Part shown: one piece after another, positions 3,721 to 64,000 of the stretch
How the letters are laid out: each line of letters begins with the position of its first letter
Numbering within the stretch: position 1 is the first letter of the stretch
NCBI GenBank assembly: GCA_000004985.1
Contig: GG738868.1
DNA from: Naegleria gruberi
Lineage: Eukaryota
DNA: 64,000 nt
Reading direction: 5' to 3' (one strand)
Position numbers and translations under genes: made by a program
Notes under the pieces: generated by a model
The model's input: only the letters and a program-made list of their open reading frames with translations
Databases searched by the model: none
Told to the model about the DNA's origin: nothing

Positions 3721-3791
3721 TGCATTAGCCGGGAGTCGAACCCGGGTCACCAGCTTGGAAGGCTGGTATGATACCGTTACACTACTAATGC
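3721..3791 (-). tRNA. tRNA-Gly (anticodon UCC)
   Basis: Reverse complement is GCATTAGTAGTGTAACGGTATCATACCAGCCTTCCAAGCTGGTGACCCGGGTTCGACTCCCGGCTAATGCA. Perfect 7-bp acceptor stem GCATTAG/CTAATGC. Anticodon stem CCAGC/GCTGG with loop CTTCCAA (anticodon TCC). T-stem CCGGG/CCCGG with TTCGACT loop. Near-identical to canonical eukaryotic tRNA-Gly-TCC. Confidence 0.9.
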
Positions 3792-4875: not shown

Positions 4876-5379
4876 AACATTCTATTTTGGAAACGACTCA
4901 AACACCTTTTTTGAAATTGTTGGTGAGGAAATTGTTCATCATAATGATCGTAAGCTGTTCTTGTATGTGTACAGGGACATTACAGAATAAAACTTCGAAG
5001 TTTCATAAAGTTAAATAAATTGAATAGCTGTAAAAGAGTAACTTTCTAATTGGATGAAAAATTGCTATTGCATCCACTGAGTTGTTAATGAAAAGTAGAG
5101 CTGTACAACAGTTTGCACTGATTTAAAAGCTATTAACCATGTGTAGCAATATGTTAAGATTCAATGGTTCTTTACAAAATATCAAAAAATGCCAACACTA
5201 ATAATATTGCATGATTCATTGTTTTGTGATCATGAAAATGTTATCAAACTGAAACAAAAATTCACTTATCAAAGCAAAGGAAAATGTAAATGGATTCATA
5301 ATAGATTAAATTGTGGTGCCATCTTCCGATCGAGTTTGCGCATGATAAATTTTATATTTGTAAATTTCTGCAAAAACAC

Positions 5380-6226
5380 ATGTTTAGGAATGAATTTAAT
5401 ATTTGTGATGAGTGGTTTGATGAGAAGGTAGATCTTTTTTTCGATAGGATCAAAAAATATGGATTATTGGACTACTCAATTAGAACTCGCAGTGATAGGA
5501 TTTATTGCAATGAAATATTGCAAAACAGTACAGAATTTATTTTTCAAATAATTAAGAATGAGGAAAAGGCAAAGAAATATGCTCCTAAGCGTGCAAATGA
5601 GTGCTATGAAGAGGATGAGATAGTTGAAACTAACACAAATTCAGAAATAGATTTGGAGGACAAAAATTCAATTTTGAATGATCTGAAAAAGAGGTCTGAT
5701 AGTTACATTTTCAAAAATATTTCACCAAGTTTGAAAGGTGATGCAGAATTTATTTTACAAGCACTCAAATATTGTCCTGATGCTTATATTTTGGATTTTG
5801 TTGATTCGACGCTGAAACAGGATAGAGAATTCATTAAACAAGCTGTGAAGGTAAATCCATATTCAATTGCATTTGCAAGCCAATTTTTAAGAAATGATTT
5901 TGAAATTGCTAAAGAAACACTGTTACTGAACGCAGATTGTTTCAGATATCTATCCTATGAGTTAAGGTCAAATGAGGAATTGGCCATGATGGCTTTGAAA
6001 GAGTTACCATTTCTTTGGACTTATCTTAGTGAAGATCTTTTTAACTGTGGAATTTGCATTGAAAGCCATTGAGTATGCCAATGCAGCTGTCATTAAATAC
6101 TTTCCACAAGTCCCAGAACAGATGGAGATAGTTGCAGTGAAAGCAAATGGATACTATCTCAATTTTACAGAACAACTACTTGAGGAACGTATTAATCATG
6201 AATACTTTGGAGCTAAATTGTTCTAA
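5380..6226 (+). CDS. DUF4116-repeat protein; reading frame is interrupted (possible pseudogene or homopolymer sequencing errors); 5' end uncertain
   Basis: DUF4116-type repeats (..DAEFILQALKYCPDAYILDFVDSTLKQDREFIKQAVKVNPYSIAFASQFLRNDFEIAKETLL..) in track ORF 5311..6072. The repeats continue in another frame in ORF 6029..6226 (..EFALKAIEYANAAVIKYFPQVPEQMEIVAVKANGYYLNFTEQLL). The switch occurs at a T5 run (6037-6041); removing one T restores ..SEDLLTVEFALKAIEY. A separate ATG-initiated frame (5189..5431) overlaps the 5' end, and an A3 run at 5308-5310 could be a second indel site. The first in-frame ATG of the DUF4116 frame is 5380. Confidence 0.4.
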
Positions 6227-29718: not shown

Positions 29719-32700
29719 TTATTGTTTATTGAGTTTTACTTGTAGTTCAAGTTCTTTAATTCTTTGTAAAAGTTGATAATTTTCCTCAATTATTTGACTC
29801 TTTTCATTCATTGTTTGAGTGTTTTCTTCTAGTATTTGATTGTAGCTCTTCAAAGGTGCAACTGTTCTATATTCTTTCATACTTGTTTCAATATCTTTGA
29901 TAGTTATGTTTTTACCTTGTAAATGTTGAACAATATCAGAAAGAATTGTTTTGTGAGTCCAACAATTCAATCTTTTAGAGGAATCTCTTTGAATCATTGT
30001 AATTATGAATCTAATTAATAGAGTATTGACATTAAAACTTGAATCAATAGTTCTATTGATCAATTTGTCAATAGCATAATGTAATTTAGTTTCTCCTTCA
30101 ACAGTTGTTACAACTGAAAAGAAATGTTTACCATATCCAGTAAAATACTGATAGTTCTCATCATATTTCTTAATTTCAGAATCGCTAATAAATTGTTGAT
30201 CCAATTGTAAAGAGCAATTTGTTAATATTTTCAATAGAATACATCCTAATGAAAACAAATCGCACTGAACTGTAATTTTACCAACATTTTGAGCTAGTTT
30301 TTCGTCATCATTTTGTTTTAACAATTCATCACTATAATTATCATATGAAACTTCAGGTGGCATGTATGAGGCCTTGCCTCGTGCAATAGTGATTGAATGA
30401 CCTGTCTTGATTACTTTAGCAGTGTCAAAATCAATGATTTTGTACTTGTCTTTCACCTTAACTATATTCTTTGGATCTAAATCTCTATGAGAAATGTTAT
30501 GGTCATGAATTGATTTTACAGAATCTAAAATTTTGATAAATATACTAAGGAATTCAATAAGTTTTTCTCTTGTTATATTTGCAGAATTTTGGTAGAGTGT
30601 TACATTTCTATTAATATAATCTAATAGGGTTTCTTCTCCTAATTCCATTACTGAGTACATGTAATTATCAATTAGTTCACATTCGTAACATATAATTTTC
30701 CCCTCAATATCATTTCTTTTAATAAATTGAACTCTTTCAAGAGATGATTTCTGATCGAATTCTTTATCAAATTTAACTTTAACAGCAACCAATTCTTTTC
30801 TAATTCTATCAAACCCTTTGAATGCAACTCCTTCTCCTCCATATCCTAAAACTGATAATAAATGAAATTTCTTATTGAAAAACGAGTAGTACTGATCTAT
30901 AATTTTGATTATTTTTGAAGAATCTCCAAATAGTTCATTATATTTTGTTAATGTTTTCTTGTAGTTGTCAAATGAAGAGCTGTTTTCAGTCCAACGAGAG
31001 AAAAAGTACAATATCATTTCTACATCTTTTGCTGAATAATATGATGTCTCGAATATGGATGAAATACTATCAACTTGCTTTCTCAGATTTGAAATAGGGG
31101 TTGGAATAATCTCACTTTCATTTTCTTCCAAAAATCTAGTTAATAATAAGCAAAACAGATGATAGTCAACTGATTCAAAAGTAGAAGCTTTGGTAAATGG
31201 ATGTTTTGATACTATATTTTTCACAATTTGCAAAATAATTAACTTGGTTATGAAATCAGCAGAGTATTTGGCACTAAATAACTTGAGAATTGGTTTTGGA
31301 AAAGTTTCATGTAAATCCAAGCAATAAAATAAATAACTTTCATCACAATACTTGTTTGAATACATTCCAACAATGTCCTTAGAAAGCTTTGTAGTCATTG
31401 GATCATTAGATTTTTCAATAAAATTAAATAACAAAGAGTTGATTTGATTAGCTCTTGTGGGATTAGTTTTTGTAAGTAAGTGGAAGAATGTTGTATCTGA
31501 AAGTAAGTGTGTATCTATGAAATCAATTGCAGTTGGGGTTTGTTTAACAGCTTCTAAAATTATATCCCTATCTTGAAGTAATGACTCGTCAATAAATAAA
31601 TACAGTTCACCATCTTGTTTCAAAGCTTCCAATACTATTTCTCTGTCTTTTGTTAATGTTTCGTCTGCATAGTAGAATGCTGTGCTATTTTGTTTTACAG
31701 CTTCCAACACGATTTTTCTATCCTTCCTCAATGAATCATCGGCATATCTAAGTACTTCTCCATTTTGTTTAACAGCTTCCATTACAATTTGCTTATCCCT
31801 TCTCAATGATTCATCAACTTGCTCAAGAGTATTTCCATTTTGTTTAACAGCCGCCAACGCAATTTGCTTATCTTTTTTAAAGGACTCATCTGTTGAAATT
31901 ACATCGCCATTCAATTTAACAGCTTCTAACACAAATTTTCTATCCTTCCTCAATGAATCATCTGCATATCTAAGTGCGTAGCCATTTTGTTTAATAGCTT
32001 CCAATACTAATTCTCTATCCCTTTTGAATGATTCATTGGCATAGTCAAGTGCGTAGCCATTTTGTTTAACTGCCTTCAAGACAATATCTCTGGTTTGTTC
32101 AAAGTTTGAAAAGGCGAAGTTTGTAAATAGCCTTAAAGCTTCTCCATTAGATTCAATTGCTTCCAAAATAAAGTCTGTGTTATATTTAAGCGAATCATCA
32201 ATAAAATCAAGAGCTTTTACATTTTTCTTTGTGGCCTCCAACACAATTTCTCTATTTTTAAAAAGTGAATGGTTTGTGTTTTTGAAAGGTAATCCATTTC
32301 GAATAGCTTGGATAACAATTTCTCTATCAATATTCATGGAAATATCAGATAGTTTAACACCATCTTGCTTGATAGCATTCAATTCAATTTCCTTTTTCAA
32401 TTTTTCAGCAATGGTAATATAGGCCAGGCCGTTTTGTTTAACAGCTTCCAATATAAACTGTCTATCACTTCTAAATGAACTATCTGCAAGTCTAAGTGCA
32501 CAGCCATTTTGTTTAATAGCTTCCCTAACAATTTCAATGTCTTGTTTGAATGATGCATCTATATACGGCAATGCTTCACCATTTAATTTCACAGCTTCCA
32601 ATACGAATGCTCTGTCTTTCTTAAATGACGAATCAGCATGACTGAATGCACTTCCCTTTTGTTTAATTGCCATCAGTACTATATTTCTATCGTTTTTAAA

Positions 32701-33048
32701 TGAATTGTCAGCAAACTGTAATGCAGTGCCATCCTGCTTAATGGCTGCCAACACAATTCTTCTGTCTCTTTTAAGAGTTTCGTCTGCAATCTCTAGTATT
32801 TGGCCATAGTTTTGTTTGATGGCTTCCAAAACTAAACCTCTATCTTTCCACAGTGATGGATCGGCATAAGATAATGTGTGACCATGTTTTTTAACTGACG
32901 CCATCACAATTTCTCGATTCGCCTTTAATGAAGAATGTGCATATAAAAGTGAGAGCGAACAATCTTGTTTAATACCTTGTAAAATGTATTTTTTATCTTT
33001 TTGCAACTTTTCATCGTTCATAAGTGATGAAACATCATACTCTTTCAT
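29719..33048 (-). CDS. Giant DUF4116-repeat protein (about 25 tandem ~36-aa repeats) fused to a C-terminal Ser/Thr protein kinase domain
   Basis: ATG at 33048. Repeats of the form ..DR.IVLEAVKQNG.AL.YADDSLRKDR.. across residues ~20-520. Kinase domain with LGYGGEGVAF (Gly loop), VAVKVK (VAIK), HRDLDPKNIV (catalytic loop), IIDFDTAKV (DFG variant), SYMPPE (APE-like). C-terminal coiled coil. Confidence 0.75.
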   Translation of the reverse strand: MKEYDVSSLMNDEKLQKDKKYILQGIKQDCSLSLLYAHSSLKANREIVMASVKKHGHTLSYADPSLWKDRGLVLEAIKQNYGQILEIADETLKRDRRIVLAAIKQDGTALQFADNSFKNDRNIVLMAIKQKGSAFSHADSSFKKDRAFVLEAVKLNGEALPYIDASFKQDIEIVREAIKQNGCALRLADSSFRSDRQFILEAVKQNGLAYITIAEKLKKEIELNAIKQDGVKLSDISMNIDREIVIQAIRNGLPFKNTNHSLFKNREIVLEATKKNVKALDFIDDSLKYNTDFILEAIESNGEALRLFTNFAFSNFEQTRDIVLKAVKQNGYALDYANESFKRDRELVLEAIKQNGYALRYADDSLRKDRKFVLEAVKLNGDVISTDESFKKDKQIALAAVKQNGNTLEQVDESLRRDKQIVMEAVKQNGEVLRYADDSLRKDRKIVLEAVKQNSTAFYYADETLTKDREIVLEALKQDGELYLFIDESLLQDRDIILEAVKQTPTAIDFIDTHLLSDTTFFHLLTKTNPTRANQINSLLFNFIEKSNDPMTTKLSKDIVGMYSNKYCDESYLFYCLDLHETFPKPILKLFSAKYSADFITKLIILQIVKNIVSKHPFTKASTFESVDYHLFCLLLTRFLEENESEIIPTPISNLRKQVDSISSIFETSYYSAKDVEMILYFFSRWTENSSSFDNYKKTLTKYNELFGDSSKIIKIIDQYYSFFNKKFHLLSVLGYGGEGVAFKGFDRIRKELVAVKVKFDKEFDQKSSLERVQFIKRNDIEGKIICYECELIDNYMYSVMELGEETLLDYINRNVTLYQNSANITREKLIEFLSIFIKILDSVKSIHDHNISHRDLDPKNIVKVKDKYKIIDFDTAKVIKTGHSITIARGKASYMPPEVSYDNYSDELLKQNDDEKLAQNVGKITVQCDLFSLGCILLKILTNCSLQLDQQFISDSEIKKYDENYQYFTGYGKHFFSVVTTVEGETKLHYAIDKLINRTIDSSFNVNTLLIRFIITMIQRDSSKRLNCWTHKTILSDIVQHLQGKNITIKDIETSMKEYRTVAPLKSYNQILEENTQTMNEKSQIIEENYQLLQRIKELELQVKLNKQ
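31490..32990 (-). repeat. Tandem array of ~108-nt coding repeats (DUF4116 units) inside the 29719..33048 gene
   Basis: The reverse-strand ORF 31682..31981 shows a periodic shadow translation (..FCLTASNT.FLSFLNESS..). The protein shows ~36-aa periodicity over ~500 residues. Confidence 0.6.
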
Positions 33049-35665: not shown

Positions 35666-37104
35666 ATGGGTAACGCACCGAGTGGAGGACAACAACCTTT
35701 CCAACTTCCTGGCGCTGGAAAAAAGCAGAATAAGGACGATAAGAAAAAGAAGAAGGAAAAGAAAAAGTTTGAACAACCAGTACCAACCCGTATTGGCAGA
35801 AAAAAGAGGAAAAAGGGTCCACAAATTGCTGAAAAGCTTCCAGAAGTTACACCAGTCTCAAAATGTAAACTTAGAATACTACGATTGGAAAGAGTTAAAG
35901 ACTATCTTACAATGGAAAAAGAATTTGTTACTAATCAAACAAAACTTTTGACTGCCCAAGAAAAGAGCAAGGATATGGAAGAGGAACGTAACATGGTCGA
36001 TGAATTAAGAGGATCACCAATGGCTGTAGGAACTCTTGAAGAAATTATTGATGATAACCATGCTATTGTTTCTAGCAGTGTTGGTCCTGAATTCTATGTT
36101 TCAATCCTTTCAATTGTTGATAAGGATCAATTGGAACCTGGTTGTAGTATTTTAATGCACAATAGATATTTGGCTGTTGTTGGTATTCTTCAAGATGAAG
36201 CCGATCCAATGGTCTCTGTCATGAAAGTCGATAAGGCTCCTCTCGAATCATATTCACAAATTGGTGGTTTGGAAGATCAAATCCAAGAAATCAAGGAAGC
36301 TGTCGAATTCCCATTAACACATCCAGAACTTTATGAAGATATTGGTATTAAACCACCAAAAGGTGTTATACTTTATGGTGAACCAGGTACAGGAAAGGTA
36401 TGTAGTAATTATTTATACAACAATGTATTAATCATCATCATTATACTTATATTATTGAATATGTATAATCATATTAGACACTTCTTGCCAAAGCTGTAGC
36501 CCATCACACCAGTGCTACTTTCTTGCGTGTTGTTGGTTCCGAACTCATTCAAAAGTATCTTGGTGAAGGTCCAAAACTTGTTCGTGAATTGTTTAGAGTT
36601 GCTGAAGAATTGGCTCCAAGTATTGTATTTATAGACGAAATTGATGCTATTGGTACAAAGAGATTTGATTCAACATCAGGAGGTGAACGTGAAATTCAAA
36701 GAACTATGCTTGAATTGCTTAACCAATTGGACGGTTTCGATTCCAGGGGTGACGTTAAGGTTATCATGGCCACTAACAGAATTGATTCTCTTGATACTGC
36801 TTTGATTAGACCTGGTAGAATTGATCGTAAGATTAAATTCCCATTCCCAGATGTTAAGACAAAGAGAAAGATCTTTGAAATTCACACTCGTAAGATGAGT
36901 AAGGCTACTGATGTAAATTTGGATGAATTTATTTCCTCAAAGGATGAATTGTCTGGTGCTGACATTAAAGCTATTTGTACAGAAGCAGGTTTGTTGGCTC
37001 TCAGAGAACGTAGACTCCAAGTTACTCAAACAGACTTTACAAAGGCCAAGGAAAAGGTTTTGTACAAAAAGCAACAAGGTATTCCAGAAGGTCTTTACAT
37101 TTAA
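35666..37104 (+). CDS. RPT2: 26S proteasome regulatory subunit Rpt2 (PSMC1 ortholog), 2 exons: 35666..36397 and 36478..37104 (80-nt intron, GTATGT...CATATTAG)
   Basis: [49 protein letters not shown].. (myristoylated Rpt2 N-terminus). AAA+ core [12 protein letters not shown]|[62 protein letters not shown].. split by one intron after GTGK. Near-identical to human PSMC1 over the ATPase domain. Confidence 0.93.
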
Positions 37105-44985: not shown

Positions 44986-46527
44986 TTAAGGTAATTTCAT
45001 AAGTCTGACAGTGTGGGCCATATGATTGACAGTTTCAGCACCAATTACTAAGACTACCAGATCGCCAGGTTGGGCAAATGACTTTTCAACCAAATATTTA
45101 CAACAAAGCTCTTCGACACTGTGAGGACCTGTGATGTAATCCGTGTTATGGATTAGTACAGGAGTAATTCCCCAACCTAATGTGAGACGATTGAATGTAA
45201 ATTCTTGATCTGTCAATGCAATGATTGGAACATTAGGTCTGTATTGAGAAATACTGACAGCTGTTTTCCCTGAATTAGTGATACAACAAATTAATTTAAC
45301 ACCAGAGTGCTTATTTGCAATAGTAGAAGCAGCCATGCAGCTAGCATTTTCAATAGAGTCAGTGGCATTACTGTTGAAATCATTCTCATGAGAGTCCAAT
45401 CTACCAAACTTGTGAGAATTGATGTCAGCTGTTCTCACAATTAAGTGCATAGTTTTGACAGAAAGAACTGGATATTTTCCCATAGCTGATTCATTACTCA
45501 ACATGACTACATCTGTTCCATCAAAACATGCATTGGAAACATCTGTAACTTCAGCTCTGGTTGGAATTTTACTTTCAACCATAGATTGCAGCATTTGGGT
45601 GGCTGTAATATCAATTTTACCTGCTTTGGAGGATTTTTCAATTAATTCCTTTTGGAAAATTGGTAATTCATGGAAATTAGTCTCAATCATCAAATCACCT
45701 CTATGTGAAATAATTATCAGAAAAAAAATCATTCTACAAACTTACCTTGCAACCATCAATCCATCAGCTTCCTTAAGAATGGCATCAATATTTCTAATAG
45801 CTTCAATTCTCTCAATTTTTGCAATAATTGGAATAGTTTTACCAGCAAATTTCATCATTAGATTCTTGGCATCAATAATATCTTGAGCAAATCTGACAAA
45901 ACTCAAACAAACATAATTAATTTCACCACATTTCATACCAAATTCCAAATCAGCAATATCTTTTTCTGTCAATGCAGGGGCTGAAATAGTTGCCCCTTCA
46001 TCAACCATATTAATTCCCTTTCTTTGAGATAACATTCCTCCTGTTACAACTTTACAAACCATTTCAGTTTCTTCTTGATTTTTAGAAACAACGTGCACTT
46101 CCAAATAACCATCATCAATCATTAATTTAGAGCCAGGTCTACAATCCCTAACCAAATTTGGATAAGAAGTAGAAACTTTTCTAGGTCTAGTTTCATTATC
46201 TTCACCACTCGCAATAACACTCTTATCTGTAGTGATCACAATTTCCTCTCCCTCAACAATCATGAAAGATTTACCCAATTTACCAATTCTAATCTTTGGA
46301 CCTTGAAGATCTTGAACAATTGCAAATGGAATTCCACCCAATTCCTTCTGTGCCTCTCTAATCTTTTGAATCGTCTCCAAATGAACGTTGTGTTCTCCAT
46401 GACTAAAGTTTAATCTAGCTGCGTTCATTCCTTCCATCATCATTTGCATTATTATAGATTTATCGGAAGAGCTTGGGCCGATCGTGCACAATATTTTGGT
46501 TCTTCTATCAGATGCTGTTCCGTTCAT
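44986..46527 (-). CDS. PYK: Pyruvate kinase, 2 exons: 46527..45746 and 45700..44986 (45-nt intron GTAAGT...TTTCACATAG)
   Basis: ATG at 46527. ..RRTKILCTIGPSS..MQMMMEGMNAARLNFSHGEH..LQGPKIRIG..MVDEGATISAPALTEKDIADLEFGMKCGEINYVCLSFVR..IIAKIERIEAIRNIDAILKEADGLMVA|R|GDLMIETNFHELPIFQKELIEKSSKAGKIDITATQMLQSMVESKIPTRAEVTDVSNA.. The intron splits the invariant MVARGDLGIE motif (phase 2). Confidence 0.92.
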
Positions 46528-50389: not shown

Positions 50390-51089
50390 ATGCAATTGTT
50401 TAGAGATTTTAGTTTTTTGAATTCTCCGCATACAAATAATAAGAAATCTACTCAGGTTTCTTGTTACACTAAAGACACTTGTGGTGTTAAGGAGAACTTG
50501 TACTTCTTCAGTCATGATGACGGTAGAGGGCCTATTCGCTATTTTTGATGTGGCTCTTTTTACCTTGAAGGAAATGGATTTCCACTATCGTCCTCTTGCT
50601 ATGGACGACTCTAACCTCGACTCTCTCCAATATTCTCTCACTCAACAACTCGACCAATCTATGAATTTCCTTTCCAATACTACATTCAAAAATACCCAAA
50701 AACTTTCACCAAAATCTGTAATGTTTGTTTATACTATTGGTGATGAATTACCAGATTATGACGATGCTTCATCAGAATCATCATTGGAATCTGACTCAAG
50801 TGATGCTAATATTAGAACTGGATTTACTGGTATTATCGACTTTGAAAAGAACGAAATGACAATTTATCCACCTTCTAATTCTTCATGCATGAATAAGGAT
50901 TCTGTTATTAATCTTATGGACATGGCTGATTGCCTCGGTATTTCAACTTTGTACATGTGTATTGAAAAGAACCATCAAGAAATTAGAGAGTTTTCTCGTG
51001 GTTTCATTTATGCTGGTTTCGAATTGATACAACCAAAGATTAAGCAATTGTCTTCAACTGAATGGGTTGTTTTTGGTGCTGAATTGTAA
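50390..51089 (+). CDS. OAZ: Ornithine decarboxylase antizyme homolog, predicted to require a +1 programmed ribosomal frameshift: ORF1 50390..50548 (52 codons, ends UUU-UGA), ORF2 continues in +1 frame from 50547 to 51089
   Basis: C-terminal half of ORF2 (..MTIYPPSNSSCMNKDSVINLMDMADCLGISTLYMCIEKNHQEIREFSRGFIYAGFELIQPKI..) matches the antizyme ODC-binding domain (..LYVEIPDG..VFICFHKNREDRAALLRTFSFLGFEIVRPGHPL..). Upstream ORF1 starts at ATG 50390 (aaaATGc) and ends ..CGC-UAU-UUU-UGA-UGU; skipping the U of UGA reads GAU-GUG-GCU.. (ORF2). The track ORF 50481..51089 starts at a GTG. Confidence 0.6.
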
Positions 51090-57526: not shown

Positions 57527-58261
57527 TTATTGAGATGATTGCCTTAATATTTCATTTGCCTTATTTGAAATTTCATAATCTCCAAATCCTTTAATTGCTA
57601 TATATGGAAAATCAGAAGAAATACCATATTTAACTAGCAATATATCAGCTCCATTTGCATGTTCGCTATTTAGTTTTTTCGCACTTCTTGTTGGTTCAAA
57701 AGCAATTTGTCTCATTTTGACCTTTTTTTTAAGTTCACTTATCTTGAAAATCGTTTGAATTTTCTCATCCAATTTGGAATGATTGCAATTATATCCCAAA
57801 TAATACAAATTCTTAATTACTATTGATTCAGTTTCCCTCATAGCTTCGTTTACAGGTGTTTCTTGCGTTTTCTCTACATTCTTCTGATTTTCTTCATCAT
57901 CAGTTTCCTTTCCATGTGTTTCACCATTTTTCTTGACATTCTTCAATTTAGATTCGTCCACATATTCCTGAATTGGTACAATAGCAGCAGAACTTGTCGA
58001 ATGATCAACGCTCATCGTATTATAGTTGGTATTTTGATTTTCCTTATTGAATTCTTTTGATTCTTCATCCACTTGACTAGGATTTCTACACAATTTACCA
58101 ACTACAAGTGCAGGTTGATTGAAAACCAACAATGCCATCAACATCATTTGTAAATAAACAATATATGGAAGTAAGCCAACCAATAAGAAACCCAAAAAGA
58201 AGGCAACAAGTACATTTCGTTGATCCAAACATGTCTGAAAAAGATAGAGTGGTAGAAACAT
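57527..58261 (-). CDS. Membrane-anchored protein with conserved C-terminal domain (paralog A of an inverted pair); function unknown
   Basis: ATG at 58261. N-terminal TM helices (VLVAFFLGFLLVGLLPYIVYL..). C-terminal ~100 aa (..IVIKNLYYLGYNCNHSKLDEKIQTIFKISELKKKVKMRQIAFEPTRSAKKLNSEHANGADILLVKYG..PYIAIKGFGDYEISNKANEILRQS) about 75% identical to the 58650..59339 product. Confidence 0.5.
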   Translation of the reverse strand: MFLPLYLFQTCLDQRNVLVAFFLGFLLVGLLPYIVYLQMMLMALLVFNQPALVVGKLCRNPSQVDEESKEFNKENQNTNYNTMSVDHSTSSAAIVPIQEYVDESKLKNVKKNGETHGKETDDEENQKNVEKTQETPVNEAMRETESIVIKNLYYLGYNCNHSKLDEKIQTIFKISELKKKVKMRQIAFEPTRSAKKLNSEHANGADILLVKYGISSDFPYIAIKGFGDYEISNKANEILRQSSQ

Positions 58262-58649: not shown

Positions 58650-59339
58650 ATGCTCAAATTTATTAGTGGAGTTGTTTGTGGAAGTGGAATTACAACACTA
58701 GCCCAGTTCTATGTATCGTCAACCAAATTAGAGAGTCCACCAGGCAGTGAAATTTCACAAGTTGAACCTTTACATGTTGTGATGAATGATTCAACTCCAT
58801 CACCCAGTCATTCATTGGCAATTCCAAGTACGGATTCATCTCTAAATGTTATAGGATTGACTTTGGGAGGAAATTTTGTTTTGATTTGGGTGGTGTTGTG
58901 GGAAGTGGGTAAAATCTTATTTGGTAAGAAGAACGAGAAAAGGGAAATGAGAAAGGAAGAAGCTCAACAAGACGAAACAACAAAACTGAATAATTCTGAA
59001 GGAAAAATTGAAACTGAATCAAGTATCATTAAGAATTTGTATTATTTGGGATATAATTGCAATCATTCCAAATTGGATGAGAAAATTCAACAGATTCTCA
59101 ATACTAATCAACTTGAAAAAAAGGTCAAAATGAGACAAATTGCTTTTGAATCAACGAGAAGTTTGAAAAAGCCAACAAGTGAACATGCGAATGGAGCTGA
59201 TATATTGCTAATTCCTTCTGGAGATTGTCTTTTTATGGATATTCCATATATAGCAATGAAAGGATTTGGAGAATATGAAATTTCAAATAAGGCTATTGAA
59301 TTATTGAAACAATCTGTACAAATAAATTCAAATTATTGA
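58650..59339 (+). CDS. Membrane-anchored protein with conserved C-terminal domain (paralog B, divergently transcribed from paralog A)
   Basis: ATG at 58650. N-terminal hydrophobic segments. C-terminal ..IIKNLYYLGYNCNHSKLDEKIQQILNTNQLEKKVKMRQIAFESTRSLKKPTSEHANGADILLIPSG..PYIAMKGFGEYEISNKAIELLKQS. Confidence 0.5.
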   Translation: MLKFISGVVCGSGITTLAQFYVSSTKLESPPGSEISQVEPLHVVMNDSTPSPSHSLAIPSTDSSLNVIGLTLGGNFVLIWVVLWEVGKILFGKKNEKREMRKEEAQQDETTKLNNSEGKIETESSIIKNLYYLGYNCNHSKLDEKIQQILNTNQLEKKVKMRQIAFESTRSLKKPTSEHANGADILLIPSGDCLFMDIPYIAMKGFGEYEISNKAIELLKQSVQINSNY

Positions 59340-60184
59340 AGATTATTCTGGGATGAACACAAAAAACGAGTAAAGCATGTTAATGGTGGAAGATTGATGA
59401 TGGAAATGGCTTTATATAATAAGGATGAGGTATTAAGCCATTTTTTGATATTGTTCAACAGTAATAGTTTTCTCTCGTTTATCGGAGCCGGACAGATATT
59501 AATGTCATTGAATTTTATTAAGGATTCCCACATGAAAACACTAACTCATGTTAATTGCTGACTGCTGACGAATATATCAGCAGGTTCCATCATCACATGG
59601 ACATTCACATAAGAACATGTCGTATTAATTGATGATACAACCAGTGAAGTGTTATGGTTGTTAGACGTAAAAAAGATTAACATAGAAAATTCATCTTCTT
59701 TATCTTCTAATTGAATTCATTCTTTGAATATTATTCATATTGGTTTGTTGTATTCTTTGCATGGTCTGATTATGTGTACGAATATTATTCATATGAGTTC
59801 TATGATTACTTTCATTGGTTCTTCTGATGGTTTCATTGGTTCTCCTGATAGTTTCTTGGGTTATTTAATTACTTTGAGAGAACAGCCAAGTCACAAAGCA
59901 TGGACACAACAAACCAGGTGCTTTTGGAACTTGTGACACTATTCATCAAACTTTAATTTGAGTGAGTTACTAAACTTTATCTTCACATTTATCGGAAACA
60001 GTGCAACCAACCAAACAATTGGATTTGTGCAAGTATTGTAAAGTGCGTATCCAAAACCAAGTTGACCAATAGAAGGACAACCAGGTTCTTCCGATGTTAC
60101 AATCACTAGTTTTGAAGATTACATTTCGCGACTCATAAATCGCCTTCAAAGCTGAATAAGGGAAAATTGTTTCTTTCAAAAAAA

Positions 60185-62077
60185 ATGTCTTCACTGCATA
60201 CTACTAAGAAGGAAACCAAACCAACAAGAAGACCTCTATCTTCAGCAGCTAAGAGATTACTTGAAGATTTGAAACAATTAAATCGTCAAAGTGAGCTCAA
60301 ATACATATCTGCTCAACCACTGTCTAATAATTTATTTGAATGGCATTGTAATCTGTATGGAAATGAAGAATCCATGTATAAGGAGTGTTGTTATCATTTC
60401 ATTATCAAGTTTCCAAAAGATTATCCTCACAATCCACCACAAATTGAAGCATGTTCTGATTTGTTACATCCACAAGTTTACAATAGAAAAGTATGCTTGG
60501 AATTGACTCAACAGAAGGAAGGCACCGAAGAGAATGCAGATGGATGGAGTTGTTCATATACTGTATTTTCAATTCTAATGCAATTGCAATCTTTCTTATT
60601 CGATTCCAAGGTCTCTAATAGACCAATGATTAAAATTGAGCAAAAAGATGCATACAATGTAAAATGCAGCAAATGTGGGCATGTACCAAGAGATGGTAAC
60701 ATATTTCCATATCATGAAATGAATTCCATTTGTTTCTCAGAGTTAAAAAAGGAATTGAGGAATTCTAGACCATCTAAATCAAGTAATAGGAAAAAGGAGA
60801 GAAGTAATATTGTAATTATTGAAAATGAAGAAGATATTGAAAAGATGTACTCAAATCAATCAGGACAATCCACTAGTTCTGTTCCAATCAAGAATGGAAA
60901 TACAATTTCCAAACAAGTACTTTTTCACATTTTCAAATTCTTGGAAAAATCAGAATTGGATTCGACCATGTTTAAAGTTTGCAAGGAATGGAAGGAAATT
61001 TCTCAACATCCTCTCTTTGGTAATAGAGAAAGAATTTGTTACTTTACAAAACAACCATGCAGAGATGAAGAAACCATTTTAGGATATGGTGTCGAACCAA
61101 AGTTTACAAAAACTGGAAGATTGATTAATATTGATTCACCTTATGAATATCTATCTTTTCATTCGTTTAGAAATTTGAACGTGAGAACTAGTGTTTGGAA
61201 TATTTCCTTCCAAAATTGGATTCCAATTCCAGTATTTACAATTCAAATTGGAAATGAATTGAAAAATGTGGAAGAATATTTGTTTAACCTATTTAAGGAT
61301 TGTGTATCAGAAATATATTACTTTCTTCAAAGTGATTCAACAGTTGAATTTCAATCTCTTGATTTGTTAGGTAAAATGATGAACTCTATAATTATTAACA
61401 TTCTCAGAAATCAAAGTCATGCATCTGTCAAAGCACTTGATGCCTACATCAATTTACACAGATGGTTAATTATGTTATGTGAAAAGTATCCAAATGTACT
61501 TTTACTCATTGATGAGAAAATTGAAAAATTCATCCAAGATGAAGAATTTAGAAGTAAGGAACATGTCCCTGCCCTTGGAGAATTCCTCTGCTTACTCTCA
61601 GTTTCAGAAAAGTTCACTTGGGATGAGATGGCACCTGCTATTATTAAGGAATCTCTTGATAGAGGAAGTTTGTGGGGTGTCTTTTCAAATGAAAAATTGA
61701 AAGATGTGATTGAATATCATTTGGAGGAAGATAAGGAAAGAGAACGAATGATTAATACATTCGAGGCAACAAAATCTAATCTGCATAATTTAGCTTTCCA
61801 TAGTTTCCTAATTAGATATTTCAGAATGAAAACTAGAGTTGAAACTGCTGAATATTATGATAGAAATTACTTGACTCCATATATTGTAAATTCAAATGAG
61901 AAGGATCAAGAGAGATTGAGAAGTGCTCTTGTGGAAATTCAATCCAAGATTATTAACTATTATGAATTCTTCAAATATGTTCAAAATGTTGAATTGGATG
62001 AGATTTCAATCATGTTAAAATTAAGAGTTGCCATGAAGAATATGAAAAGAAGAGGATATTATGAAGAAAATAAATAG
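60185..62077 (+). CDS. Ubiquitin-conjugating enzyme (UBC/E2 catalytic domain) fused to an F-box-like motif and a long C-terminal extension
   Basis: First ATG 60185 (MSSLHTTKKE..); the track start 60167 is a TTG. UBC fold: ..AAKRLLEDLKQLNRQSELKYISAQPLSNNLFEWHCNLYGNEESMYKECCYHFIIKFPKDYPHNPPQIEACSDLLHPQVYNRKVCLELTQ..WSCSYTVFSILMQLQSFL (HPN-like motif plus active-site Cys). Downstream F-box-like ..ISKQVLFHIFKFLEKSELDSTMFKVCKEWKEI... Confidence 0.7.
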   Translation: MSSLHTTKKETKPTRRPLSSAAKRLLEDLKQLNRQSELKYISAQPLSNNLFEWHCNLYGNEESMYKECCYHFIIKFPKDYPHNPPQIEACSDLLHPQVYNRKVCLELTQQKEGTEENADGWSCSYTVFSILMQLQSFLFDSKVSNRPMIKIEQKDAYNVKCSKCGHVPRDGNIFPYHEMNSICFSELKKELRNSRPSKSSNRKKERSNIVIIENEEDIEKMYSNQSGQSTSSVPIKNGNTISKQVLFHIFKFLEKSELDSTMFKVCKEWKEISQHPLFGNRERICYFTKQPCRDEETILGYGVEPKFTKTGRLINIDSPYEYLSFHSFRNLNVRTSVWNISFQNWIPIPVFTIQIGNELKNVEEYLFNLFKDCVSEIYYFLQSDSTVEFQSLDLLGKMMNSIIINILRNQSHASVKALDAYINLHRWLIMLCEKYPNVLLLIDEKIEKFIQDEEFRSKEHVPALGEFLCLLSVSEKFTWDEMAPAIIKESLDRGSLWGVFSNEKLKDVIEYHLEEDKERERMINTFEATKSNLHNLAFHSFLIRYFRMKTRVETAEYYDRNYLTPYIVNSNEKDQERLRSALVEIQSKIINYYEFFKYVQNVELDEISIMLKLRVAMKNMKRRGYYEENK

Positions 62078-63484: not shown

Positions 63485-64000
63485 TTAATTACGATGTTGT
63501 GGTGCTGTAGTATGGAAGAGACTGGATTGTTGTTGCTGTTGTTGGTAGGAAGGTCCAATTGTCAAATCAGAGGAAAAAAGTGAGCTATTGGAATTACTGA
63601 AAGGTGTTTGAACAAAATCACGTCTCATCGGTTGTGGAGGAGTAACTGGATTTTGGTGAGCATAAGTTTGTTGGTTTGGCCATTGTTGATACTGTTGAGG
63701 ATACATTGGTTGTTGCATCATAAATCCATTATTAGTATTCATTCTTGGTTGAGGTGAGAAACTATTCATATTGTTCATTCCATTAATACCACCCATATTA
63801 TTCATGTTATTCATGTTGTTCATGGTATTCATATTATTCATACCACCACCAATATTATTATTCATCCAATTCCATTGATTAGATTGTCCAAATAAGTTAA
63901 AATGTGAATTGACGTTTTGGTTATTTGAAAATCCAATACCATGACCACCAGCAAAATAATTACTGTGAGGTTGAGAAATGTGTTGAGGTTGTTGAGCCAT
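63485..64000 (-). CDS. Asn/Met/Gln-rich low-complexity (prion-like) protein; ATG at the very edge of the window, so 5' completeness is uncertain
   Basis: MAQQPQHISQPH.. Then NMN/NNM repeats (MNNMNTMNNMNNMNNMGGINGMNNMN) and a Q-rich tail. Encoded by 9-nt tandem repeats at 63799..63843. Confidence 0.45.
   Translation of the reverse strand: MAQQPQHISQPHSNYFAGGHGIGFSNNQNVNSHFNLFGQSNQWNWMNNNIGGGMNNMNTMNNMNNMNNMGGINGMNNMNSFSPQPRMNTNNGFMMQQPMYPQQYQQWPNQQTYAHQNPVTPPQPMRRDFVQTPFSNSNSSLFSSDLTIGPSYQQQQQQSSLFHTTAPQHRN

Follow-up and report, generated by a model that had tools for sequence, protein, structure and literature searches.

Rad6/UBE2A is the E2 (ubiquitin-conjugating enzyme) partner of the UBR ligases, and in F-box proteins the C-terminal domains usually bind substrates or partners. 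Larger enzymes such as UBE2O and BIRC6 carry a UBC (E2) domain inside a longer chain that supplies functions like those of an E3 (ubiquitin ligase), and both steps are thereby provided by one polypeptide. The E3 module of UBR4, which consists of a hemiRING and a UZI domain (PDB 8B5W and 8BTL), was described in 2024 as a novel fold with relatives in the UBR1-3 ligases only (Barnsby-Greer et al. 2024, PMC10873205). It was found experimentally to bind and activate UBE2A/B, in which it reads the positions Arg7, Arg8 and Arg11; its one zinc is coordinated by Cys4838, Cys4841, His4887 and Cys4890, mutation of which abolishes activity, and the residues just upstream of the hemiRING (~100) increase the affinity for the E2 75-fold (PMC10873205). 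The subject of the present analysis is a gene on contig GG738868.1 of Naegleria gruberi (assembly GCA_000004985.1), lying in a stretch of 64,000 nucleotides that is referred to throughout as the window, whose product joins in one chain a UBC domain, an F-box and a C-terminal domain with a modelled fold resembling this UBR4 module.

It is on balance probable that the protein is an E2-E3 hybrid, made up of a Rad6-like UBC domain, a Cys/His knuckle, a linker, an F-box and a zinc-less hemiRING-UZI module, and that it docks on Skp1. The five-part architecture itself is conserved, and the window gene is a divergent member of a family that occurs in protists and giant viruses. A profile of the C-terminal part was used with HMMER to search 1.84 billion cluster representatives and retrieved 2266 family representatives at E<=1e-3, 693 of them at E<=1e-30. 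Among the best 151 matches a UBC domain was present in 95, an F-box in 97 and both in 72, and wherever both occurred (72/72) the order was UBC, F-box, C-terminal domain. An earlier note on this DNA had held that a fusion of E2 and F-box would be an unusual architecture and had proposed a search for it in other protists; the fusion is real and the same arrangement was found there, but it is no one-off, being the hallmark of the family. Named members come from N. gruberi (two paralogues), Balamuthia mandrillaris, Pyxidicula operculata, Protostelium nocturnum, Planopodium desertum, the diatom Seminavis robusta and the raphidophyte Chattonella, and the names given in the sources are 'hypothetical protein', 'ubiquitin-conjugating enzyme family protein' and 'ubiquitin-protein ligase'. 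The window protein is ~30% identical at most to the named relatives and ~29% identical to the N. gruberi paralogue P0031. Look-ups by exact sequence returned no record of it, nor any of the neighbouring protein. A word-indexed protein search with the C-terminal part alone gave no matches, and with an alignment as the query only 10 unnamed ones. When predicted viral structures were searched with Foldseek, the C-terminal domain was recovered in giant-virus proteins named 'E2 ubiquitin-conjugating enzyme' (Terrestrivirus A0A3G4ZRM4, Hyperionvirus A0A3G5A9Q2 and Tetraselmis virus 1 A0A2P0VP69), with E values of 5e-16 to 7e-17, query template modelling (TM) scores of 0.75-0.80 and identities of 18-25%; there were weaker matches to other Klosneuvirus-like proteins, one of them named 'RING finger domain protein'.

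The gene lies in a single open reading frame (ORF; 60167..62077 on the plus strand, first ATG at 60185, stop codon at 62075-62077), which encodes 630 amino acids with 0 internal stops, the 1893 bases containing neither a premature stop nor a frameshift. The relative P0021 aligned to residues 21-626 of the window protein as one high-scoring segment pair (HSP), and because one HSP spans this region no intron is required. Trinity-assembled transcripts from Pyxidicula contain both domains, as does P0017, for which there is also an MMETSP transcript record, and the fusion of these relatives therefore exists in mRNA. Read-through that joins two adjacent genes, or the decay of a pseudogene, might account for the sub-threshold score of the F-box and for a few substitutions at positions conserved in the family, but such an artefact is extremely improbable and is rejected, given that the frame is continuous, that homologues align from end to end, that several supergroups, and assembled transcripts too, have the identical fusion, and that every invariant residue of the family is retained. 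The earlier note had placed an E2 and an F-box in one polypeptide and had seen no intron or stop between the domains; both statements are borne out by the continuous 630-residue frame, the single-chain relatives, the one HSP, the constant domain order (72/72) and the transcripts of relatives.

The C-terminal ~350 amino acids gave no match in Pfam. An AlphaFold2 model of residues 235-630, built from an alignment of 89 sequences without templates (predicted local distance difference test, pLDDT, 88.3; predicted template modelling score, pTM, 0.87), consists of the F-box helices, a beta-rich subdomain (~283-358) and then a bundle of ~11-12 main helices extending over residues 359-622. In a Foldseek search of the PDB at E<=0.001 the sole match was 8B5W, 'E3 module from UBR4' (E=2.4e-4, probability 1.00, TM 0.54/0.61). 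The alignment to 8B5W covers 292 residues and the UZI domain alone ~235, so that part of the hemiRING region is presumably included. On the evidence of the model, residues 283-630 are a zinc-less, UBR4-like E3 module; the earlier note was right that a region of ~350 residues follows the F-box, but the model and the Foldseek match make of it something more than an 'extension'. None of the 89 aligned members contains a CxxC or an HxxC, and the UBR4 zinc ligands are without counterpart. The beta-rich subdomain is therefore a zinc-less relative of the hemiRING. The residues C285, G300, P347, K458, G465, W479, E489 and R493 do not vary over 57-89 sequences. Cys285 is the only conserved Cys (89/89), within the motif C-[FY]-H-[TS]-[KR], and has been kept while the other zinc ligands are gone. 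It might be a second catalytic site, with ubiquitin passing from Cys104 to Cys285 and on to the substrate. The family would then constitute a new class of cysteine-relay E3 on a UBR4-type scaffold plugged into Skp1, a proposal that has to be regarded as very improbable.

The main rival to the E2-E3 hybrid is an E2 tethered for the use of a canonical SCF (Skp1-Cul1-F-box) ligase, in which the F-box would assemble on Skp1-Cul1-Rbx1 and the RING of Rbx1 would activate the fused E2. The UBR4-like domain would have lost both its zinc and the binding of an E2, and would now bind a substrate or partner. The F-box does adjoin the C-terminal domain and is modelled with it as a single unit at the pTM given above, a layout typical of an F-box and its receptor, and the zinc ligands of the hemiRING are missing. 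There are also members that lack UBC but possess both F-box and C-terminal domain (P0011 and its longer isoform P0168 from Planopodium, P0107 and P0138), and in some UBC-less members the C-terminal domain is followed by TerD and a PBZ zinc finger. However, what the fold specifically matches is an E3 module that binds an E2, an E2 accompanies the C-terminal domain in 95 of the best 151 matches, and the motifs are strictly conserved across supergroups, which favours a fixed partner over diverse substrates. This tethered arrangement is accordingly considered rather unlikely.

For the UBC domain, the Pfam model UQ_con (PF00179) matched residues 24-147 at E=2e-22 (79.7 bits, gathering cut-off 27), and solved E2s in the PDB matched the window protein with a best E value of 6e-16. 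The alignment spans positions 1-116 of the 140 in the model and the last two canonical helices were undetected, so that 'complete', as applied by the earlier note to this N-terminal fold, is slightly overstated; the HPN-like motif and the catalytic Cys that it had named are present, and both of the strings of residues that it quoted have been located (see the table). The catalytic Cys is present in 55/57 family members, and the third position of the HPN motif across the 57 is N in 31, H in 20 and Q in 2 (Asn 54%). When the PDB was searched with the UBC profile of the family, the best 12 matches were all Rad6/UBE2A/UBE2B (7e-28, 100 bits); with the window protein alone Ubc7 was the top-ranked E2. 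The family consensus of helix 1, A-x-[RK]-R-L-x-[RK]-D, agrees with UBE2A at the positions of Arg7, Arg8 and Arg11; in the window copy these are K23, R24 and E27, which do not match the trio. In loop 2 the conserved G-W-S keeps the equivalent of UBE2A Ser97. These features are suggestive, if not decisive, of a Rad6-type E2 ancestrally paired with a UBR-type module. A match to RWD (21 bits) was set aside since it overlaps the UBC domain, and the Pfam matches Baculo_FP_2nd, Zn_ribbon_3, CpXC and ZapA were discarded, every one being under its cut-off.

His71 in the UBC beta-sheet is family-specific and kept in 53/55 sequences. In place of the canonical C-terminal helices, the cross-over helix is followed by a family-specific helix and then by F-x-C-x-x-C-x-H...P, in which C161 is conserved in 47/56, C164 in 46/54, H166 in 56/57 and P175 in 56/56. 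This Cys/His knuckle probably forms a small zinc site. The region in which the family varies is the linker that follows, the distance from UBC to F-box being 19-846 amino acids in relatives, and in some of these SPRY, S1, TerD, LigT or RRM occur as extra domains.

The F-box (Pfam PF00646/PF12937) of the window protein is an atypical copy. PF12937 matched residues 245-276 with 17.2 bits (E=0.0044), short of the gathering cut-off of 24.3, and helix 1 starts with I-S in place of L-P; both V-C-K-x-W and the pattern of the hydrophobic core have been preserved. An F-box can nevertheless be called here because the homologous position across the family is a clear one. Among 57 full-length relatives F-box-like was matched in 31/57 (best 5.2e-11) and F-box in 24/57, with the consensus LPxE[ILV]Lxx[IV]FxxLxxx[DE]Lxxxxx[VL][CS]xxWxxL, and a profile of this segment only, compared with the PDB, found F-box proteins almost exclusively (Skp2 9e-10, FBXW7 5e-9, FBXL5 1.5e-8). 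A leave-one-out hidden Markov model of the family F-box, from which the window sequence had been excluded, recovered residues 244-276 at 19-20 bits; the structural model has helices at residues 243-250, 255-260, 267-273 and 276-282; and Foldseek matched it locally with the F-box of FBXL17 (probability 0.97) and that of Fbs2 (0.89). The F-box predicted by the earlier note is thus present, and at family level Pfam supports it, but the window copy alone falls short of the cut-off and it lies at residues 241-282, not ~250-290. The weak score and the missing L-P would be accommodated by a Skp1-independent E2-E3 hybrid in which the degenerate F-box serves as a structural N-terminal cap or as an element of E2 affinity, as does the region before the UBR4 hemiRING with its 75-fold gain (PMC10873205). 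Such a role is distinctly improbable, since the window copy keeps the core pattern and V-C-K-x-W, many relatives have strong canonical L-P F-boxes (5e-11 to 6e-12), and the Pro is absent even from several relatives that score well.

For an E2-E3 hybrid that docks on Skp1, we infer E2 binding in cis, Skp1 binding and catalytic activity. Cys104 would be charged with ubiquitin by E1 (ubiquitin-activating enzyme), and the UBR4-like module would then take hold, in cis, of the E2~Ub tethered to it, in the way that UBR4 holds UBE2A, favouring discharge. The F-box would bring the E2-E3 unit onto Skp1, and possibly Cul1-Rbx1 too, and substrates may be recruited by the variable linker or, in some relatives, by the accessory domains. 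The suggestion of the earlier note that the protein might be a substrate adaptor plus E2 holds as far as the E2 and the F-box are concerned, but is better expressed as E2, F-box and E3-like module together. A number of observations weigh against the hybrid. The window copy is atypical, not only in its F-box but in having Gln97, which makes the motif HPQ and not HPN, Glu27 where the family has Arg/Lys, Phe at position 287 (His in 64/89) and Gln at position 354 (His in 85/89). At the level of the family, the ligands for zinc are absent from the hemiRING counterpart; the C-terminal profile retrieved from the PDB at E<=10 only F-box proteins and no UBR4 chain; UBR4 families are absent among the Pfam matches listed for the window protein and its relatives; and the existence of UBC-less members means that the module can work without an E2 in cis. 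The preference of the UBC profile for Rad6 is by less than 3 bits, UBE2D coming next at 97.6 bits, and a full-length model built from a 4-sequence alignment (pLDDT 42) is too poor to show docking in cis or the last two helices of the UBC domain.

The coordinates of the gene and its parts are collected in the table, together with other genes of the window, which has a G+C content of 32% and contains ordinary eukaryotic nuclear genes of the sort expected in a free-living protist.

Table 1. Parts of the E2-F-box gene, and genes found elsewhere in the window
Feature	Position	Strand	Basis or remark
Whole gene	60185..62077	+	630-aa uninterrupted ORF, colinear with full-length homologues; no intron required
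UBC (E2) core, aa 17-147	60233..60625	+	UQ_con 2e-22; PDB E2s; family profile nearest Rad6/UBE2A/B
Active-site stretch HPQVYNRKVC; HPQ = aa 95-97, catalytic Cys104	60467..60496	+	Sequence and family alignment
Family-specific appendage, aa 148-177: helix and CSKCGH knuckle (60665-60682)	60626..60715	+	Family alignment
Low-complexity basic/Ser-rich linker, aa 178-240	60716..60904	+	Family comparison
F-box, aa 241-282, starting I-S instead of L-P; ISKQVLFHIFKFLEKSELDSTMFKVCKEWKEI begins at 60905	60905..61030	+	Pfam, family profile, model, Foldseek
Beta-rich subdomain, aa 283-358, at UBR4 hemiRING position, without C2HC ligands; invariant Cys285 (61037-61039)	61031..61258	+	Model, alignment
All-helical bundle, aa 359-630, UZI-like (UBR4)	61259..62074	+	
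NXF1/TAP homologue; TPT transporter			Genes elsewhere in the window
Rev1-like polymerase; arrestin-domain protein; Gaa1; DUF4116-kinase			Genes elsewhere in the window
SRAP-domain protein; Tpt1; pyruvate kinase; ODC antizyme			Genes elsewhere in the window

Directly upstream of the E2-F-box gene is a divergent paralogue pair (57527..58261 on the minus strand and 58650..59339 on the plus strand), whose products have the C-terminal ~110 amino acids in common (IIKNLYYLGYNCNHSKLDEKIQ...KKVKMRQIAFE...SEHANGADILL) and no match in Pfam. Beyond the gene, at 63485..64000 (minus strand), a low-complexity ORF rich in Q, N and M (NNMNNMNNMGG...) continues past the end of the window. The gene for the ornithine decarboxylase (ODC) antizyme, 50390..51089 on the plus strand, has an apparent +1 programmed frameshift of the classic kind: ORF1 runs from the ATG at 50390 to a TGA at 50546-50548 in the context TAT TTT TGA TGT, ORF2 in the +1 frame has a Pfam ODC_AZ match (E=6.8e-8), and a shift at UUU UGA U would connect ...RYF with DVALFTLKEM. 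Pyruvate kinase (44986..46527, minus strand) is divided between two neighbouring ORFs separated by a gap of ~10 bases, with positions 2-247 of the barrel in 45742..46527 and barrel positions 245-328 plus PK_C in 44986..45732; the split may represent a very short intron, a frameshift or a sequencing error. Of a proteasomal ATPase the ORF 35666..36499 (plus strand) encodes OB_C alone; the region for AAA lies outside it and must therefore be in another exon, from which it follows that the genome has introns. A 1109-amino-acid ORF at 29719..33048 (minus strand) combines ten DUF4116 repeats with a protein kinase domain, and a second ORF with four DUF4116 repeats is found at 5311..6072 (plus strand); such repeats are reminiscent of Naegleria. 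The sole tRNA gene of the window is a tRNA-Gly (TCC) at 3721..3791 (minus strand).

A full-text search of the literature, including the two papers on the UBR4 structure, found no E2-F-box fusion and no UZI domain outside UBR proteins; an earlier mention is possible, as the key older survey of E2 architectures was not covered. The pair of Pfam domains had already been precomputed for relatives in the protein collection that was searched. The C-terminal domain had apparently not been assigned before. With its assignment the UBR4 scaffold is seen by itself in small proteins of several eukaryotic supergroups and of giant viruses, and, if the pairing in cis is real, these proteins of 600-900 amino acids would be natural minimal models of a UZI-type module with its Rad6-like E2. 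A RING-like platform for E2 binding would be functional without zinc, and UBR-type and SCF-type ligases, which are usually treated separately, would become linked. The viral copies suggest that the module is used by viruses for redirecting host ubiquitination.

In comparison with known systems, the closest is the UBR4 module, to which the C-terminal module of the family is matched in fold and with which it shares the company of a Rad6-like E2. The two differ in that the C2HC zinc site occurs in UBR4 only and the beta subdomain has ~75 amino acids in the family as against 114 in UBR4, and there is no detectable similarity of sequence between them; moreover, the UBR4 module ends a 574-kDa scaffold with a UBR box, whereas that of the family follows an F-box and is fused to its presumed E2. 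Rad6/UBE2A/UBE2B, the top PDB matches of the family E2 profile, share with the family the helix 1 consensus R-R-L-x-R-D, and the equivalent of their Ser97 lies in the G-W-S of the family, but they keep the canonical C-terminal helices where the family has a helix and the CxxCxH knuckle. UBE2O and BIRC6 have no known homology to the family outside UBC and are not known to possess an F-box or a UZI-type module. The giant-virus proteins have the same C-terminal domain as the window protein and are annotated by the E2 name only. In the F-box proteins of SCF ligases, such as Skp2, FBXW7 and FBXL5, the F-box stands directly before the C-terminal domain, as it does in the family, but that domain is a WD40, an LRR (leucine-rich repeat) or another typical receptor, whereas in the family it is an E3-like module with an E2 upstream. 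The family is allied to kinds of protein that were already known: E2/E3 hybrid enzymes, F-box proteins and UBR-type modules.

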